In this document: positions 3,862 to 30,798 of the stretch, one piece after another
How positions within the stretch are numbered: the first letter of the stretch is position 1
Layout of the letters: each line of letters starts with the position of its first letter
NCBI GenBank assembly: GCA_000008085.1
Contig: AE017199.1
Location: 330,001 to 362,000, forward strand
Direction of reading: 5' to 3'
DNA from: Nanoarchaeum equitans Kin4-M
GTDB taxonomy: Archaea > Nanobdellota > Nanobdellia > Nanobdellales > Nanoarchaeaceae
DNA length: 32,000 nt
The notes under the pieces: model-generated
Told to the model about the DNA's origin: nothing
The model's database searches: none
Seen by the model: the letters and a program-made list of their open reading frames with translations, nothing else
Made by a program: the position numbers and the translations under genes

Positions 3862-4560
3862 ATGCGCGTAATAGTATTCTTCGTAGAGCCTGAGAAAGTT
3901 GATAACATAGGAGCAATGGCAAGGGTTTGCAAAAACTTTAATGCAGATTTATATTTAATTAACCCAAAAGTAGATAACTACGAAAAAGCCTTTGTTGTAG
4001 CAAAGCATGCCCAAGATTTATTGCAAAAAGCGATAGAGAATAAGCTAAATAGTATAGATGAAGCAAAAGAATTAGTTGATATAAGTGTGGGCACTACAGG
4101 AAAAATAGCTAACGAATACAATGTATTAAGAAGCCCTTTAAAACCATGGGAATTAGCAGAGAGGTTTGCCAATAGCGATATAAAACTTGGTATATTTATT
4201 GGAAGAGAAAGCATAGGTTTAACTAATGAAGAGCTATCAAAAATGGATTTTATTGTTACTATTCCTGCGAATAAAGAATATCCAATACTAAATGCTACCC
4301 ATGCTACAGCAATAATTTTATATGAATTATTCAAACATTCAAAAGAAGGGCATGTTAATTTAGCTTTACCAAAAAAAGAACAAATCGATGTTTTATTAGA
4401 TTATGTGAAGAAAATAATTGATAAACTGCCTCAACCAGATTATAGAAAGGAATATTATTTTATAATAATGAGAAAACTTATTACGCAAGGCATAATAAAT
4501 AGCAGGGAAGCCAATACATTAATTGGGTTTTTTAGATCTATATATGAAAATCTCAAATGA
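3862..4560 (+). CDS. SPOUT-class RNA 2'-O-methyltransferase (SpoU/TrmH, TrmJ/LasT-like)
   Basis: 232 aa. VFFVEPEKVDNIGAMARVCKNFNADLYLINPK (SpoU motif 1), IFIGRESIGLTNEEL (motif 2), and LNATHATAIILYEL (motif 3, knot). Confidence 0.75.
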   Translation: MRVIVFFVEPEKVDNIGAMARVCKNFNADLYLINPKVDNYEKAFVVAKHAQDLLQKAIENKLNSIDEAKELVDISVGTTGKIANEYNVLRSPLKPWELAERFANSDIKLGIFIGRESIGLTNEELSKMDFIVTIPANKEYPILNATHATAIILYELFKHSKEGHVNLALPKKEQIDVLLDYVKKIIDKLPQPDYRKEYYFIIMRKLITQGIINSREANTLIGFFRSIYENLK

Positions 4561-4606
4561 AGATATTGTGTGCTTCTGAACTAATGATGAAAGGAGCAGG
4601 AACAGA
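4557..4606 (+). ncRNA. C/D box sRNA (sRNA-1)
   Basis: AUGAAGA-UAUUGUGUGCUU-CUGA-ACUA-AUGAUGA-AAGGAGCAGGAA-CAGA. This is C, a 12-nt guide, D', a 4-nt spacer, C', a 12-nt guide, and D, 50 nt in total. The C box contains the UGA stop codon (4558-4560) of the upstream gene. The C(U5>A)/D(U2>A) change is compensatory at the K-turn U:U position. Confidence 0.65.
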
Positions 4607-4614
4607 TTATTAAA
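4607..4614 (+). promoter_or_regulatory. TATA box for the 4635 gene
   Basis: TTATTAAA followed by 20 nt, then the A of ATG at 4635. The box abuts the D box of sRNA-1. Confidence 0.6.
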
Positions 4615-4634
4615 TAGTATATAATTTTTCCCTA

Positions 4635-4991
4635 ATGAAAGCAGCAGTAGCGTGTTACGAAAGCAATGGTGTGTATAAGCTATTCCCAACAGAGTTTGGC
4701 CATGCCCCCATATTTGTAATAGTAGACCTCGATACAAAACAAATAGTAGAAAAAAGGGAAAACCCCTATAAGGGAGAAGAATCCAAAGATAAATTCAAAA
4801 AATTAGCCGAATATTTGAAAGATGTGGATTATTTTGTAGGCAAACAATTTGGTACATCTGTTTTGAAATTAAGGCCAATGTTTAACAAAATCCCCGTAGT
4901 AGTTAATGCCGAAACCTTAGAAGAAGCAATAGAAAAACTATCTAATTCGAAAGATAAGCTAAATTTAGACAGCTATGTTATTTTGTTGTAG
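4635..4991 (+). CDS. NifB/NifX-family (dinitrogenase FeMo-cofactor-binding fold, COG1433-like) protein
   Basis: 118 aa. MKAAVA...FGHAPIFVIVDL...NP...VDYFVGKQFG...IPVV matches the pattern of small archaeal NifX-like proteins recalled from memory. Confidence 0.55.
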   Translation: MKAAVACYESNGVYKLFPTEFGHAPIFVIVDLDTKQIVEKRENPYKGEESKDKFKKLAEYLKDVDYFVGKQFGTSVLKLRPMFNKIPVVVNAETLEEAIEKLSNSKDKLNLDSYVILL

Positions 4992-5378: not shown

Positions 5379-7457
5379 ATCCATGGCATAGAGCCAAGAG
5401 AATACCAAAAAAGAATATTCGAGACCGCTAAAAACTATAATACATTAATAGTATTGCCAACAGGTTTAGGGAAAACAGTAATAGCGTTAATGCTAATAGA
5501 GTATTTCAAACAAAAATACCCGGATAAAAAGATATTGTTTTTAGCTCCTACAAAACCTTTGGTTAATCAACATGTGGAATTTTTAAGAAAATATAGCGAT
5601 ATAGATCCAACAAAAATAGTTGGTATAAGTGGGGACATACCAAAAGAAAAAAGGGTAAAACTTTATAATGCCGATGTTATAGTTGCAACTCCCCAAACCA
5701 TAAAAAATGATTTGGCCAATAACTTAATAGATTTGAACAAATTCTCTTTAATTATATTTGATGAAGCGCATAGGGCTGTGGGTAACTATTCTTACACATA
5801 TATAGCTCGCAATTTCAATAATAGAATTGTAGGCCTAACCGCTTCCCCTGGGAGCGATGAAGAGAAAATAAAAGAAATAATAGAAAACTTAAAAATAGAG
5901 AGAATAGAATATAGAAACGAAGATTCCTCAGATGTTAGACCTTATGTAAAGAAAAAGGTTATAAAATATATCGGGGTAGCATTAGACAAAGAAATACTTA
6001 CAGCTTCTTCTCTTATACAAGAGGCGATAGAGATAAGGAAGAAAAAATTGGAAGAGCTTGGCATATTAAAGAGAAAAATAAAGGATATTGCTTTATTAAT
6101 GGAAGAGCTAAAGAAGAAACAAGCTTATAGCTTAGATGAAAGGGTAAAAGATGCTATAATTATTGGTTCTGAAATTTTAATTTTATTCCATGCTTTGAAA
6201 ACATTGCAAACCCAAACATATAGAGCATTTCTTAAATTTTGTGAAAACCTCTTCGAAAATGCCCAGAAATTAAGTGAAAAAAATGTTGCCGAAGATGTAA
6301 GGCTAAAAAAAGCATATTTGTATGTTAAAGATTTAGTTAAACAAGGCAAAGAACATCCAAAAATTAATGCTTTGTTAGAGATAATAAAAAAGAATAAAGA
6401 CAAAAAAATTATAGTTTTTGCCCAGCTTACAGATACGGTAATGCAGATAACTGAATTATTGAACAAAAATAACATAAAAGCTGTAGCGTTTACTGGTAAA
6501 AAGCTTATGACTCAAAAAAAGCAAATAGAGACTTTAGACAAATTTAGGGCTAATATATATAATGTTTTGGTTGCTTCTTCTGTTGCAGAAGAAGGGTTAG
6601 ATATACCGAAGGTGGATTTAGTAATATTTTATGAACCTATTCCCTCTGCAATTAGGGCCATACAAAGAAAAGGTAGAACCGGCAGGTTAAACTACGGTGA
6701 AGTAATAATATTGTATTCTAAAAATACTTTAGATGAAAAAGCTCTTTGGGCCTCTATTAGAAAAGAAAAAAAGATGTATGAAATATTGGAAAAACTTTCT
6801 AAAGAGGTTAAACCAAAAAAAGAGCAAACTTTAAACGAAGTATTGGGATTTAGATATAAAATTATTGCTGACCAAAGAGAACAAAATTCTTTAGTAGTAG
6901 ATGCGTTAAAAAAATTAGGTATAGGGGTTAAAATTGAGAATTTAGAGGTTGGCGATTATATAGTTGGCGATGTAGTAATAGAAAGAAAAACTATTAGGGA
7001 TTTCGTTGATTCTATAATAGATAATAGGATATGGGATCAAATGAATAAATTATCGCAATTAGATAAAAAACTTTTAATATTGGAAGGAGAAGAAGACCCA
7101 TATTTTATTAGAGATGTTAACCCCAATGTTATAAGGAGTGTTATATTAACTTTATCCTTAAAAGGGATACCAATAATAAGAACTAAAAACCCTATTGATA
7201 CAGCTTATTACATTAAAGTTTTGTCTGAAAAACAAAATAAACTGCCACAAATACCTAAAATAAAGAAAAAAGAACTAACTCCTAAAGAGGTTTTAGCTTC
7301 TTTTCCTGGTATTGGTGAAAAGAGTGCCGAAGAGCTATTAAAAAGATACAAAACTATAAAAAATGTTGTTAATGCTTCTTTATCGGGTTTATCTATTATT
7401 TTGGGGGAAAAGCGTGCTAAGAAGCTTAAAGAATTTTTAGAGAAAGAATATCAGTAG
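5379..7457 (+). CDS. hef: Hef-type helicase-nuclease (SF2 helicase + XPF/Mus81 nuclease + HhH2); start codon unresolved
   Basis: Helicase motifs LPTGLGKT, FDEAH, TASPG, QRKGRTGR. Nuclease motif GDYIVGDVVIERKTIRDFVDSI (GDXnERKX3D). C-terminal FPGIGEKSAEELL helix-hairpin-helix. The track starts at TTG 5454, but the in-frame upstream sequence IEPREYQKRIFETAKNYNTLIV (Q-motif region) is open back to 5376. Confidence 0.85.
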   Translation: MHGIEPREYQKRIFETAKNYNTLIVLPTGLGKTVIALMLIEYFKQKYPDKKILFLAPTKPLVNQHVEFLRKYSDIDPTKIVGISGDIPKEKRVKLYNADVIVATPQTIKNDLANNLIDLNKFSLIIFDEAHRAVGNYSYTYIARNFNNRIVGLTASPGSDEEKIKEIIENLKIERIEYRNEDSSDVRPYVKKKVIKYIGVALDKEILTASSLIQEAIEIRKKKLEELGILKRKIKDIALLMEELKKKQAYSLDERVKDAIIIGSEILILFHALKTLQTQTYRAFLKFCENLFENAQKLSEKNVAEDVRLKKAYLYVKDLVKQGKEHPKINALLEIIKKNKDKKIIVFAQLTDTVMQITELLNKNNIKAVAFTGKKLMTQKKQIETLDKFRANIYNVLVASSVAEEGLDIPKVDLVIFYEPIPSAIRAIQRKGRTGRLNYGEVIILYSKNTLDEKALWASIRKEKKMYEILEKLSKEVKPKKEQTLNEVLGFRYKIIADQREQNSLVVDALKKLGIGVKIENLEVGDYIVGDVVIERKTIRDFVDSIIDNRIWDQMNKLSQLDKKLLILEGEEDPYFIRDVNPNVIRSVILTLSLKGIPIIRTKNPIDTAYYIKVLSEKQNKLPQIPKIKKKELTPKEVLASFPGIGEKSAEELLKRYKTIKNVVNASLSGLSIILGEKRAKKLKEFLEKEYQ

Positions 7458-7500
7458 TGCCCATCACTCTTCATCTCTCTGGGTAGCCGTATGTCATCAT
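7451..7500 (-). ncRNA. C/D box sRNA (sRNA-2), D' guide complementary to the 16S rRNA 3' domain
   Basis: Minus strand: AUGAUGA-CAUACGGCUACC-CAGA-GAG-AUGAAGA-GUGAUGGGCACUA-CUGA, 50 nt. The C box contains the rps5 stop codon. The D box overlaps the last sense codon of hef. The first guide is complementary to GGUAGCCGUA, the conserved archaeal 16S sequence just upstream of helix 45. Confidence 0.8.
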
Positions 7501-8192
7501 TTGTTTATTATAGAGCCTTCTGTATAGCCAGAGAACTTTATAAAGAATGGTTGTACTCTTACATTCGATAGCTTCTTCAAAGCATCGAATACTGCAAATA
7601 CATGGTTCATTTTAGTTTTGGTCTTACCGAAAGATCTAACCCAAACATCTTTTATTCCGGCCAATCTAAATATTTTCTTTATCTCATCGTCTGCAACTAT
7701 TCCTACTCCCTTTGGAGCTGGTTTTAATATAACTCTAACACTTCCGGATTTGCCCTCAACTTGGTATGGAATAGAATGGGGAGCCCCACAAGCACATTCC
7801 CAAGAACCACAACCTCTCGCAACTTTTATTATATTTAGTTTAGCTCTATTAATAGCTTTTTCTCTAGCTATCAATAAATCGGAGCTTCTTCCTAATCCAA
7901 CTCCAACATGGCCATCTTTGTCTCCTACTATGGCAATAACTTCGTATCTCGTTTTATTACCTTCAGCAGTTTTCTTTTGTGCCATTCTATATGGTTTTTT
8001 AGACCTAAACTTACCTCTTATTATACGCCATTTCATAAATTCAACCTCTAAATTTGGTAACAATACATCAACTATCTCTGGTTCTCTAATAACATATTTA
8101 TTAGATAATATCTCATCTATATTTGTTATTTTACCCTCTTTGACTAACCTGCCTAACTTGGTTTTAGGTTGCCATTCCTCTATATTAACCAT
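7497..8192 (-). CDS. rps5: 30S ribosomal protein uS5
   Basis: 231 aa. VIAIVGDKDGHVGVGLGRSSDLLIAREKAINRAKLNII and the C-terminal GIVADDEIKKIFRLAGIKDVW are typical of S5. GTTTTAAA at 8221-8214 gives a start 1 nt before the ATG. Confidence 0.9.
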   Translation of the reverse strand: MVNIEEWQPKTKLGRLVKEGKITNIDEILSNKYVIREPEIVDVLLPNLEVEFMKWRIIRGKFRSKKPYRMAQKKTAEGNKTRYEVIAIVGDKDGHVGVGLGRSSDLLIAREKAINRAKLNIIKVARGCGSWECACGAPHSIPYQVEGKSGSVRVILKPAPKGVGIVADDEIKKIFRLAGIKDVWVRSFGKTKTKMNHVFAVFDALKKLSNVRVQPFFIKFSGYTEGSIINK

Positions 8193-17639: not shown

Positions 17640-17777
17640 ATGCCAATATATGTTTGCTTTAATTGTGGGAGGGAAATAAAAATAGAAGGCAAACCAAGAT
17701 CGAGATGCCCATATTGTAATTCTACACTATTGTTCAAAAAACCCCCAAGGTTAACTAAACATCTAAAAGCTAGGTAA
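17640..17777 (+). CDS. rpoP: DNA-directed RNA polymerase subunit Rpo12 (RpoP)
   Basis: 45 aa, not in the ORF track: MPIYVCFNCGREIKIEGKPRSRCPYCNSTLLFKKPPRLTKHLKAR. It has a C4 zinc ribbon (CxxC...CxxC) followed by the basic tail typical of RpoP. Its stop codon shares nt 17777 with the 3' end of the convergent tRNA-Thr. Confidence 0.8.
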   Translation: MPIYVCFNCGREIKIEGKPRSRCPYCNSTLLFKKPPRLTKHLKAR

Positions 17778-17848
17778 GCCGCCGGCGGGATTCGAACCCG
17801 CGACCTCCGCCTTACCAGGGCGGCGCTCTTCCGCTGAGCTACGGCGGC
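17777..17848 (-). tRNA. tRNA-Thr(GGU)
   Basis: Minus strand: GCCGCCG UA GCUC AGCGGAA GAGC G CCGCC CUGGUAA GGCGG AGGUC GCGGG UUCGAAU CCCGC CGGCGGC U. This is a full cloverleaf with anticodon GGU and discriminator U, no intron, and no encoded CCA. TTTTTAAA lies exactly 20 nt upstream of G1. Confidence 0.95.
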
Positions 17849-29134: not shown

Positions 29135-29446
29135 ATGGAAATTATCAAAGAAGAACCAATCACTAATGAAAAAGCCTATCAAATATTGGCTAAACAAAAA
29201 CAATTATCTTATAGAGCAGAAAGAACGAAAAAGTATTTGGAAAAAATCGGTTTTATAAAGAATAGTGACGAAATATTAAAGCAATTGGTTGATTTAGGCA
29301 TAGAGTTGGAAAAAGCGATAATGATTGTAAATACTATGCCAAAAACAAACGATGAAGTAAGGGCTATATTAGAAAAAGATTACACCCCCGAAATAGGCAA
29401 AAAAGTATTAGAAATAATGAAGAAGGCTTTAAGCTCTGAAAAATGA
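29135..29446 (+). CDS. rpoF: DNA-directed RNA polymerase subunit Rpo4 (RpoF)
   Basis: 103 aa from the ATG at 29135. The track ORF starts at TTG 29117, inside the promoter. ITNEKAYQILAK..LSYRAERTKKYLEKI...AIMIVNTMPKTNDEVRAIL fits the Rpb4/RpoF pattern. Confidence 0.7.
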   Translation: MEIIKEEPITNEKAYQILAKQKQLSYRAERTKKYLEKIGFIKNSDEILKQLVDLGIELEKAIMIVNTMPKTNDEVRAILEKDYTPEIGKKVLEIMKKALSSEK

Positions 29447-29466
29447 TGACCCCTGGCAGGGACAGA
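29417..29466 (+). ncRNA. C/D box sRNA (sRNA-3)
   Basis: AUGAAGA-AGGCUUUAAGCU-CUGA-AAA-AUGAUGA-CCCCUGGCAGGGA-CAGA, 50 nt. The first half overlaps the last 10 codons of rpoF. C' contains the rpoF stop codon. The D box ends 1 nt before the stop of the convergent pepA. Box variants are the same as in sRNA-1. Confidence 0.6.
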
Positions 29467-30798
29467 TTATAGCTTTTGAACCAATTTATATAATAACCTA
29501 ACCCCAAACCCCGTTAATCCTTTGTATGCGCTTGGTATTGCCCTATTAGCTATCGCTGGCCCAGCGATATCTAAATGTAGGAATTTTTCTATAGGGCTAA
29601 ACTCTTTCAAAAATAGCCCTCCCTGGATTGCATGCGCTTCTCTCCCATTAGCATTCTTAATATCTGCTACAGCACTTTTTAATAATTCTCTATAACCTTC
29701 ATATAAAGGTAATTCCCATACCAATTCGTAGACTTCCTTTCCCGCTTCAATTGCTTTATTTACTAAATCTTTTTCCCCCATCGCTGCGGCGATTTCGTGG
29801 CCCAAAGCGATTATTTGTCCTCCTGTTAATGTTGAAACCTCTATTATGGCTTTTGGATTATATTTTGCACTATAAGCAATTGCATCTGCCAATGTTAATC
29901 TTCCTTCTGCGTCGGTATTAGTTACTTCAACAGTTTTCCCATTATAAGCCTTTATTATGTCATTAACTTTATAGGATTCTCCTGAAATAACATTTTCTGC
30001 TATAGGTATTAACGCAACTATTGGAATATCTTTTTTGTTTTTAGCTATTGCATATAGCGCCCCAATTACTGCGGCAGAACCGGACATGTCTCCATGCATA
30101 TTATACATATAATCTGTGGGCTTCAACGAATAACCTCCTGTATCAAAGGTTATTGCTTTCCCAACTAAAACAATAGGGTTGTCCTTTAAATTGTATTCTA
30201 AAATAACTAACCTTGGTTTGTATATACTGCCTTTGCCTACATAAACCAATAAGTTTAACCCTTCTCTTATTAAATCGTCGTAATGTAATACTTTTATATT
30301 TACAGGCAATCCCTTAAATATCTCGATTATTTTCTTTTCATATGTTTCAGGATTTAATACATTTGGGGGTTCGTTAGCTAAATCCCTAGCTAAATATTGT
30401 GCTTCCATTAATGTGATATATTCTTTTACCTTCTCTTTGTCATCGCAAATAAATTTTATTATTTTCTCTTGCTTTTCGCTTTTGTATCTATCAAATATAT
30501 AAGATGTAGAAAGAATCCCAATAATGGCTTTATCTTTGCTCTCTATTTCTCTTAAATCTATTATAAATTCTTTGAACGGACTATTTTTTATATATCTTCC
30601 TGCTAAGAAATAGGCTTTCCATTCGTCTTTTACATAAACTATTAGATAATCTCTATCTTTTTTTACAAAAATAGCATTATCTCTTTTAAAGAAATCTTCA
30701 TCAACATTAGCATAGCTTTTTACTGATTCCCTATCTTTAAAGAACTTTACTATCACTCCCCCATCCGCGTGGTCTGTTAAATAAAATTTGGTTGGCAT
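29467..30798 (-). CDS. pepA: leucyl aminopeptidase (M17 family)
   Basis: 443 aa. VGKAITFDTGGYSLKP and NTDAEGRLTLADAIAY active-site motifs. Confidence 0.9.
   Translation of the reverse strand: MPTKFYLTDHADGGVIVKFFKDRESVKSYANVDEDFFKRDNAIFVKKDRDYLIVYVKDEWKAYFLAGRYIKNSPFKEFIIDLREIESKDKAIIGILSTSYIFDRYKSEKQEKIIKFICDDKEKVKEYITLMEAQYLARDLANEPPNVLNPETYEKKIIEIFKGLPVNIKVLHYDDLIREGLNLLVYVGKGSIYKPRLVILEYNLKDNPIVLVGKAITFDTGGYSLKPTDYMYNMHGDMSGSAAVIGALYAIAKNKKDIPIVALIPIAENVISGESYKVNDIIKAYNGKTVEVTNTDAEGRLTLADAIAYSAKYNPKAIIEVSTLTGGQIIALGHEIAAAMGEKDLVNKAIEAGKEVYELVWELPLYEGYRELLKSAVADIKNANGREAHAIQGGLFLKEFSPIEKFLHLDIAGPAIANRAIPSAYKGLTGFGVRLLYKLVQKL

Follow-up and report, generated by a model that had tools for sequence, protein, structure and literature searches.

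The closest described system is Neq sR17, a C/D box small RNA (sRNA) of Nanoarchaeum equitans. It was reported as sRNA17 at NC_005213 334552-334611, with a length of 60 nucleotides (nt), about 49,200 reads and the gene order NEQ384, sRNA17, NEQ386, and was rated 'overlap with questionable snoscan sRNA14' (Randau 2012, Genome Biol 13:R63, Additional file 2). Fibrillarin (NEQ125) and Nop56 (NEQ342) are encoded in the same genome (Randau 2012). The PLEXY prediction of that study places the target of the D guide at position 1349 of 16S ribosomal RNA (rRNA). Dennis et al. (2015, BMC Genomics 16:632; Table 3, Fig. 5) assign the D guide to U1370/1371 and the D' guide to A915 in their alignment numbering. 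The two sites lie on opposite strands of the future 16S helix 28, and sR17 is presented there as the leading example of an sRNA that serves as a chaperone of rRNA folding; the proposal is repeated in the review of Breuer et al. (2021). The stretch analysed here (the window) comprises 32,000 nt of N. equitans Kin4-M (contig AE017199.1, positions 330,001 to 362,000, forward strand). The element under study is the C/D box sRNA at window positions 4557-4606, which had been predicted from the letters alone. It is the already published sR17, identical in sequence to sRNA17. Window position equals genome position (NC_005213) minus 330,000, an offset checked on all three sRNAs of the window. The RNA, its expression, both predicted targets, the chaperone idea and the layout with a stop codon inside a box are all already known. 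The only possibly new point is a co-variation between the boxes, which is real and broader than first claimed. The best joint explanation, held at a probability of about 0.92, is that sR17 would be a compact double-guide C/D sRNA for 2'-O-methylation of 16S rRNA, processed from the NEQ384 transcript or within that gene, and that the A.A of its terminal kink-turn (K-turn) would be a selected substitution.

The interval 4557-4606 (+) reads ATGAAGA-TATTGTGTGCTT-CTGA-ACTA-ATGATGA-AAGGAGCAGGAA-CAGA. The spacing is 7-12-4-4-7-12-4 and the total 50 nt, exactly as predicted. The boxes AUGAAGA, CUGA, AUGAUGA and CAGA stand in the archaeal order C-D'-C'-D, with one substitution each in C and D. Two guides of 12 nt, a 4-nt loop and 50 nt from box to box are within the range of other N. 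equitans sRNAs. The GA dinucleotides for the tandem sheared G.A pairs are present, as UGA...GA in both C-type boxes and as xxGA in both D-type boxes. Under the standard K-turn test, the C/D pair has A:A at 3b:3n and G6:C1 at 4b:4n, and the C'/D' pair has U:U followed by G:C. The fold of the 60-nt RNA is not more stable than that of shuffled sequences (z = -0.42). The sole predicted pairing joins the two guides, which are partly complementary to each other, as they should be if they target two strands of one helix.

A functionless chance likeness to C/D boxes in an A+T-rich intergenic region is a negligible explanation. The rigid box pattern (up to two mismatches) has 1 match in the window and none in 100 dinucleotide-preserving shuffles. 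The RNA of about 50-60 nt that the original prediction expected from the locus is the published 60-nt species; an abundant small RNA with these exact ends refutes chance by RNA sequencing (RNA-seq) data already, and both guides have rRNA targets. What speaks for chance is that the snoscan run of the genome paper rated the locus only 'questionable' and that no Rfam family is reached there at gathering score. The scan of the window at gathering threshold yields tRNA-Thr only, and a permissive scan at sR17 yields sub-threshold C/D matches only, to sR2 (the best, 16.1 bits, E=0.28; threshold 42), sR17 (RF01144) and snoR30. Rfam families of archaeal sRNAs are guide-specific, so this miss is expected and carries little weight either way.

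Both guides find a complement in a stable RNA, as had been anticipated. The pairings were read by hand, base by base, from the 16S sequence of N. equitans as aligned in Dennis 2015. The D guide (AAGGAGCAGG) forms 10 Watson-Crick pairs with 16S 5'-CCUGCUCCUU-3'. Its N+5 nucleotide is a U in an A-U pair, at N. equitans 16S-1349 and at E. coli 1384 by counting on the E. coli sequence of the alignment. The D' guide (UUGUGUGCUU) forms 9 Watson-Crick pairs and a terminal G.U with 16S 5'-GAGCACACAA-3'. Its N+5 nucleotide is an A in a U-A pair (alignment A915, approximately E. coli 933), and it fits an N. equitans-specific site, GCAC-ACAAG, which is without a C found in six other aligned archaea. The N+5 positions in the guides are window 4571 and 4598. 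A pairing of the D' guide just downstream of the D target (GCACACA) is ruled out; N. equitans has GCACUCA there. Helix 28 is here taken to be 16S 921-933/1384-1396 of the standard secondary structure. On this numbering both predicted methylated nucleotides (A ~933 and U 1384) appear to be partners in one base pair at the helix end. The eight pairs of 926-933 with 1384-1391 are complementary in N. equitans 16S by own reading of the alignment.

In the proposed mechanism, sR17 would be transcribed as the 3' tail of the NEQ384 messenger RNA (mRNA), or from within NEQ384, and then trimmed to its protein-protected part. By analogy with the family, L7Ae would bind the terminal K-turn (box C AUGAAGA with box D CAGA) and the internal K-loop (C' AUGAUGA with D' CUGA), and Nop5 and fibrillarin would complete the particle. 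The D guide would hold 10 nt of the 3' strand of helix 28 with U (E. coli 1384) at N+5, and the D' guide 10 nt of the 5' strand with A (~E. coli 933) at N+5. By holding both strands, sR17 would probably also aid the folding of the helix, in line with the proposal of Dennis et al. (2015). In the terminal K-turn the U.U that usually follows two sheared G.A pairs (3b:3n) would be replaced by A.A, in a concerted and selected substitution.

K-turn positions 3b and 3n correspond to the fifth position of box C and the second of box D, and box C/D K-turns are described as having U:U at 3b:3n followed by G:C at 4b:4n (K-turn literature); the two positions had been correctly named as the U:U pair. All three sRNAs of the window have AUGAAGA opposite CAGA and AUGAUGA opposite CUGA, with A:A at C/D in two and at C'/D' in one, as noticed in the original prediction. 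The rule was followed through the 25 linear published sRNAs of N. equitans (Randau 2012, Additional file 2; circularly permuted sRNA24 left out), in which K-turn and K-loop together give 50 pairs of C-type position 5 with D-type position 2. These are U:U in 31 cases, A:A in 12, A:U in 5, A:C in 1, C:U in 1 and U:A in 0 (Fisher's exact p = 1.5e-7). With the partners exchanged (C joined to D', C' to D), a single A:A is left and the association is reversed (odds ratio 0.11). CAGA always faces UGAAGA and UGAAGA sometimes faces CUGA. The change of U:U to A:A in '3 of 3' cases is correct for the window; genome-wide, 12 A:A stand beside 5 A:U and 1 A:C, which makes the rule a strong one, though only when read from CAGA to its partner. 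The length of exactly 50 nt from C to D likewise applies to these three sRNAs and is a coincidence of theirs; 49 nt is commonest (14/25), and 50 nt is found in 6/25.

The terminal K-turn has A:A in 8/25 N. equitans sRNAs. These are at least as abundant as those with U:U (median 46,450 vs 22,800 reads, Mann-Whitney p = 0.016). Confident snoscan calls were made for 2/10 sRNAs with an A-type terminal C box and for 12/15 canonical ones (p = 0.005); the A-type terminal box accounts for the difficulty of finding sRNA genes in N. equitans. No N. equitans sRNA has A:A in both motifs (0/8 vs 4/17, not significant).

Other genomes were scanned, one per prokaryotic species, with the pattern RTGANGA-N12-CNGA-N3-RTGANGA-N12-CAGA, in which only the D box is fixed and the other three variable positions are free. 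The scan yields at least 117 loci, many of which are orthologs of each other, so that raw counts overstate independence; the counts that follow refer to the matches listed. Of the 101 archaeal loci with CAGA as box D, 45 come from Nanoarchaeota (Nanopusillus, Nanobsidianus, Nanoclepta, Nanobdella, YN1, MC-1). All 45 carry A at position 5 of the partner C box, and 2 carry it in the non-partner C' box. Among 56 loci of other archaea, the partner has A in 33 (U 15, C 7, G 1) and the non-partner in 6. Among 16 bacterial loci, which serve as the chance control, the partner has A in 6 (T 5, G 3, C 2) and the non-partner in 3. After ortholog collapse there are 49 guide families, of which 37 have A only, 3 have A in some members and U in others, 3 have U only, 5 have C only and 1 has G. 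One Nanoarchaeota family, with the D' guide xCATCGGTTCTT, includes L015 with U:U at both motifs, L018 and L057 with A:A at C'/D', and L011 and L067 with A:A at C/D. In the CTCATCGG/GGTCTTGAGC family, L019 has A:A at both motifs and the other 11 members listed have U:U at C'/D'. Such two-sided switches within ortholog families argue for structural selection, which predicts concerted changes of this kind. The view that the co-variation argues for the reality of the degenerate boxes thus holds over the 25 linear sRNAs, in other archaeal genomes and in one orthologous family.

It is improbable that the co-variation reflects only shared ancestry of the A:A sRNAs from one duplicated ancestor, or an A-rich composition, and not structural selection. 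Scan matches are often orthologs, and the 45 Nanoarchaeota loci listed reduce to about 14 guide families; the similar D guides of sRNA14 and sRNA17 suggest some paralogy. Against this reading stand A:A at both C/D and C'/D', in sRNAs with unrelated guides, and a state that switches on both sides together inside single ortholog families. Composition has in its favour a G+C content of about 31% in these genomes. It cannot explain the partner specificity; the association is lost and even reversed once the boxes are mis-paired, and A stands in the non-partner C' box of just 8/101 archaeal loci among the matches listed.

The structural role of 3b:3n is known from other K-turns. According to the Lilley laboratory, this position governs ion-driven folding and the conformational class of K-turns; a Watson-Crick 3b,3n pair blocks folding in ions alone, and G at 3n or C at 3b permits it; U-U and A-G are both in the narrow N3 class, towards which a purine at 3b tends. 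For box C/D K-turns, a dependence on protein for folding is presumed (K-turn literature). An A.A K-turn would be expected to need protein as U.U does, because it conforms to neither rule for folding in ions (3n = G or 3b = C). A.A can take the same trans Hoogsteen/sugar-edge geometry as A.G, by base-pair isostericity. By analogy, the A.A of the sR17 K-turn is probably a trans Hoogsteen/sugar-edge pair like the A.G of Kt-7, placed third after the two sheared pairs, with N3-type width kept. In eukaryotes, the stem with the 3b:3n pair is reportedly read by Nop56/58 proteins, and not by the L7Ae homologue; a functional effect of A:A would for this reason most likely concern the recruitment of Nop5.

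Several points weigh against selected A.A and 16S guiding as an account of sR17. The A:A rule is not absolute even in N. equitans, given the 5 A:U and the 1 A:C. U:A is found outside Nanoarchaeota, in 15/56 CAGA loci among the matches listed, and these matches are not phylogenetically independent (by guide family, 37/49 purely A). Protein binding to an A.A K-turn was not found shown for any archaeon in the literature covered. Both 2'-O-methylation sites of sR17 are predicted ones; the D' duplex is limited to 9 Watson-Crick pairs and a terminal G.U, and no D' target came out of the PLEXY run of Randau (2012). An ortholog of sR17 was not found: a metagenome scan with the D half (TGAWGAAAGGAGCAGGNNCWGA) gave 5 matches, all without upstream boxes. 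The five are ruled out as orthologs and regarded as chance, lying without upstream boxes and mostly on G+C-rich contigs. No guide like those of sR17 stands beside boxes in 121 loci examined, and the box pattern has 0 matches in a viral collection. Comparative support for sR17 itself is thus lacking, because no ortholog was found.

The box rule is one-directional and lineage-dependent. In M. kandleri sRNAs, as far as the entries of Additional file 1 of Dennis 2015 illustrate, AUGAAGA or GUGAAGA appears paired with CGGA (3b:3n A:G, as in Kt-7; for example MKAsR18), and with CCGA in MKAsR17. On these entries, what stands opposite a 3b adenine seems to vary from lineage to lineage. Among the Nanoarchaeota loci listed with A:A at C/D, 1/45 has A:A also at C'/D', and 3/4 unselected sRNAs with C/D U:U in those loci do. 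This hints that A:A is usually confined to one motif per sRNA. Three bacterial loci (L007 602-650, L009 5117-5165, L044 2032-2080) share an identical 65 nt, made up of the 49-nt box-like match and the 8 nt inspected on each side. The carriers are three bacterial 'MFD' metagenome-assembled genomes assigned by their labels to different phyla (Chloroflexia, Gemmatimonadales and Thermoleophilia). A conserved gene segment, a mobile element or cross-contamination could account for the identity.

An explicit statement of UGAAGA/CAGA or A:A co-variation was not found in the text of Randau 2012 (no AUGAAGA or CAGA), a seven-species survey, an M. kandleri survey, a Pyrobaculum study, K-turn papers or full-text searches. 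Published alignments do show the pattern. Pair variability per K-turn position is tabulated in Fig. 2 of Lui et al. 2018, and the raw A:A fact may be implicit there. Analyses of the 3b:3n pair exist for K-turns of ribosomes, riboswitches and U4; for box C/D RNAs the literature covered gives only a 'strong propensity to U:U'. The co-variation is at most a modest, unremarked regularity of a well-known RNA class. A wider claim is tentative and more doubtful than likely: that A:A at 3b:3n forms a distinct selected K-turn/K-loop class, not explicitly described, a hallmark of Nanoarchaeota present also in many other archaea, usually limited to one motif per sRNA, linked to higher abundance and systematically missed by standard gene finders. 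If such a class exists, A:A may make the particle depart from two-fold symmetry, or adjust how Nop5 is recruited or how stable the ribonucleoprotein is. CAGA D boxes pair with UGAAGA C boxes, and for this reason sRNA gene finders should accept, not penalise, these 'degenerate' boxes. A.A is a natural, abundant and phylogenetically supported variant at the position that sets K-turn folding and conformation, and a convenient test case for K-turn structural rules. sR17 itself adds nothing new, being a textbook member of its class with published expression and predicted targets.

Table 1. Features at and around sR17 and the other two sRNAs of the window (window coordinates).
Feature	Position	Strand	Remarks
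NEQ384, SpoU/TrmJ-type SPOUT RNA methyltransferase	3862..4560	+	Pfam PF00588, 76.9 bits; relatives named TrmJ/YjtD or TrmH family
Mature sR17, 60 nt	4552..4611	+	Ends from published RNA-seq; 5 nt beyond each terminal box
Box C AUGAAGA	4557..4563	+	A at position 5 is K-turn 3b; holds UGA stop 4558-4560
D' guide UAUUGUGUGCUU	4564..4575	+	Predicted to pair with 16S
Box D' CUGA	4576..4579	+	
K-loop spacer ACUA, 4 nt	4580..4583	+	3 nt in 23/25 linear sRNAs; sRNA23 is the other 4-nt case
Box C' AUGAUGA (canonical)	4584..4590	+	
D guide AAGGAGCAGGAA	4591..4602	+	Predicted to pair with 16S
Box D CAGA	4603..4606	+	A at position 2 is K-turn 3n
Putative box A/TATA element TTATTAAATA of downstream gene	4607..4616	+	Adjoins box D; overlaps last 5 nt of mature sR17
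NEQ386, 118 amino acids, Nitro_FeMo-Co/NifX-like domain	4635..4991	+	Downstream gene
sRNA18 (published; genome 337448-337505)	7448..7505	-	C/D U:U, C'/D' A:A; box C holds stop 7499-7497 of open reading frame 7497..8192 (-)
sRNA19 (published; genome 359412-359470)	29412..29470	+	C/D A:A, C'/D' U:U; box C' holds stop 29444-29446 of open reading frame 29135..29446

The stop codon TGA (4558-4560) of the open reading frame (ORF) 3862..4560 forms positions 2-4 of box C, which bears out the overlap with the SPOUT methyltransferase gene that had been pointed out. A stop codon lies in a box in all three sRNAs of the window, in box C in two and in box C' in one. Among archaeal sRNA genes, about 25% share sequence with the 3' end of an ORF, stop codon included, and in nearly half of these cases the stop falls in box C (Tripp et al. 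2017, as summarised by Breuer et al. 2021). The published 5' end of sR17 is C, a pyrimidine, and no box A was seen 26 nt upstream of it. A pyrimidine start or the absence of a recognisable promoter is regarded as a sign of processing from a longer transcript (Randau 2012), and protein protection with trimming is the current maturation model (Breuer 2021). Judged by the sequence, the most likely source of sR17 is the 3' tail of the NEQ384 transcript, reached by read-through, since the RNA starts with C and without box A upstream.

On the downstream side, the statement that box D adjoins the TATA box of the next gene is supported by ATTAAA at -26 from the ATG of ORF 4635, within the peak for the window. 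Upstream of 29 ORFs of the window, TATA-like hexamers cluster sharply between -28 and -25 relative to the start codon (-26 in 12 genes, -27 in 10). This pile-up 25-28 nt before ATG suggests that most mRNAs in the window are leaderless, and the NEQ386 mRNA probably is. As ATTAAA of ORF 4635 sits at -26, TTATTAAATA, the putative box A/TATA of NEQ386, starts directly after box D. In the two closest relatives of the SPOUT gene (74-75% protein identity; loci L001-L004), the next gene directly follows it and leaves no room for an sRNA. It starts 3 nt after the SPOUT gene in L001 (10001-11607) and overlaps its last 4 nt in L003 (3284-5088) and L004 (1606-3410); the gene neighbourhood of L001, L003 and L004 differs from that of N. 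equitans. The layout with an sRNA after the SPOUT gene is thus not conserved even in near relatives.

The arrangement in N. equitans, with a stop codon inside box C and box A of the next gene adjoining box D, lends itself to a reading of the locus as mainly a cis element. As a K-turn bound by L7Ae where the NEQ384 mRNA ends, and lying over the NEQ386 promoter, it would regulate mRNA stability, termination or transcription, and rRNA guiding would be secondary or absent. Binding of L7Ae to mRNA K-turns is reported in archaea, and 5' overlap with an sRNA gene lowers the expression of the downstream gene in reporter tests (Breuer 2021). Such a role in place of guiding is very improbable. The locus yields a discrete 60-nt RNA at about 49,200 reads (Randau 2012), and complements of 10 bp for both guides on two strands of one rRNA helix are very unlikely for a purely cis element. 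A double guide for 16S remains the preferred explanation of sR17.

The D' guide of sRNA14 (genome 323041-323094), GAAAGCACAAU, is close to the reverse complement of the sR17 D' guide (AAGCACACAAUA), a CA indel apart, and thus resembles the 16S target strand of that guide. The D guides of the two sRNAs are also alike (AAGGAGUAGCUG in sRNA14, AAGGAGCAGGAA in sR17); sRNA14 is without predicted target. The likeness could be due to paralogy, sRNA-sRNA pairing or chance. A flexible scan of both strands of the window reveals exactly two further units, 29417-29466 (+) and 7500-7451 (-), each of 50 nt from C to D, which belong to sRNA19 and sRNA18. ORF 29467..30798 (-) ends one base past box D of sRNA19. 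On the strand opposite sRNA18, a Hef-like ORF runs into the 3' part of this sRNA and ends at 7457 (+). The tRNA-Thr(GGU) at 17777-17848 (-) has 74% G+C, against about 31% for the window; such a contrast is typical of hyperthermophiles whose genomes are A+T-rich.

Compared with N. equitans sRNA17 / Neq sR17 (Randau 2012; Dennis et al. 2015), the element is the same molecule, identical in sequence, coordinates, flanking genes and guide targets. Compared with sRNA genes that have a stop codon in a box motif, as outlined from Tripp et al. 2017 in Breuer et al. 2021, it is alike in having UGA in box C and, probably, in maturing from a longer transcript, with no difference in kind. With the archaeal C/D box sRNA class it shares the order C-guide-D'-short loop-C'-guide-D, guides of 12 nt, a length of about 50 nt, the N+5 rule, and a K-turn with a K-loop. 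It differs from the class in A:A in place of U:U in the terminal K-turn, in being without a terminal stem, and in a spacer of 4 nt against the usual 3 of its genome. With the ribosomal Kt-7 (3b,3n = A.G) it has in common a purine at 3b after two sheared G.A pairs, and the narrow N3 geometry is expected for A:A. Kt-7 differs in having G at 3n, which permits folding in metal ions alone.

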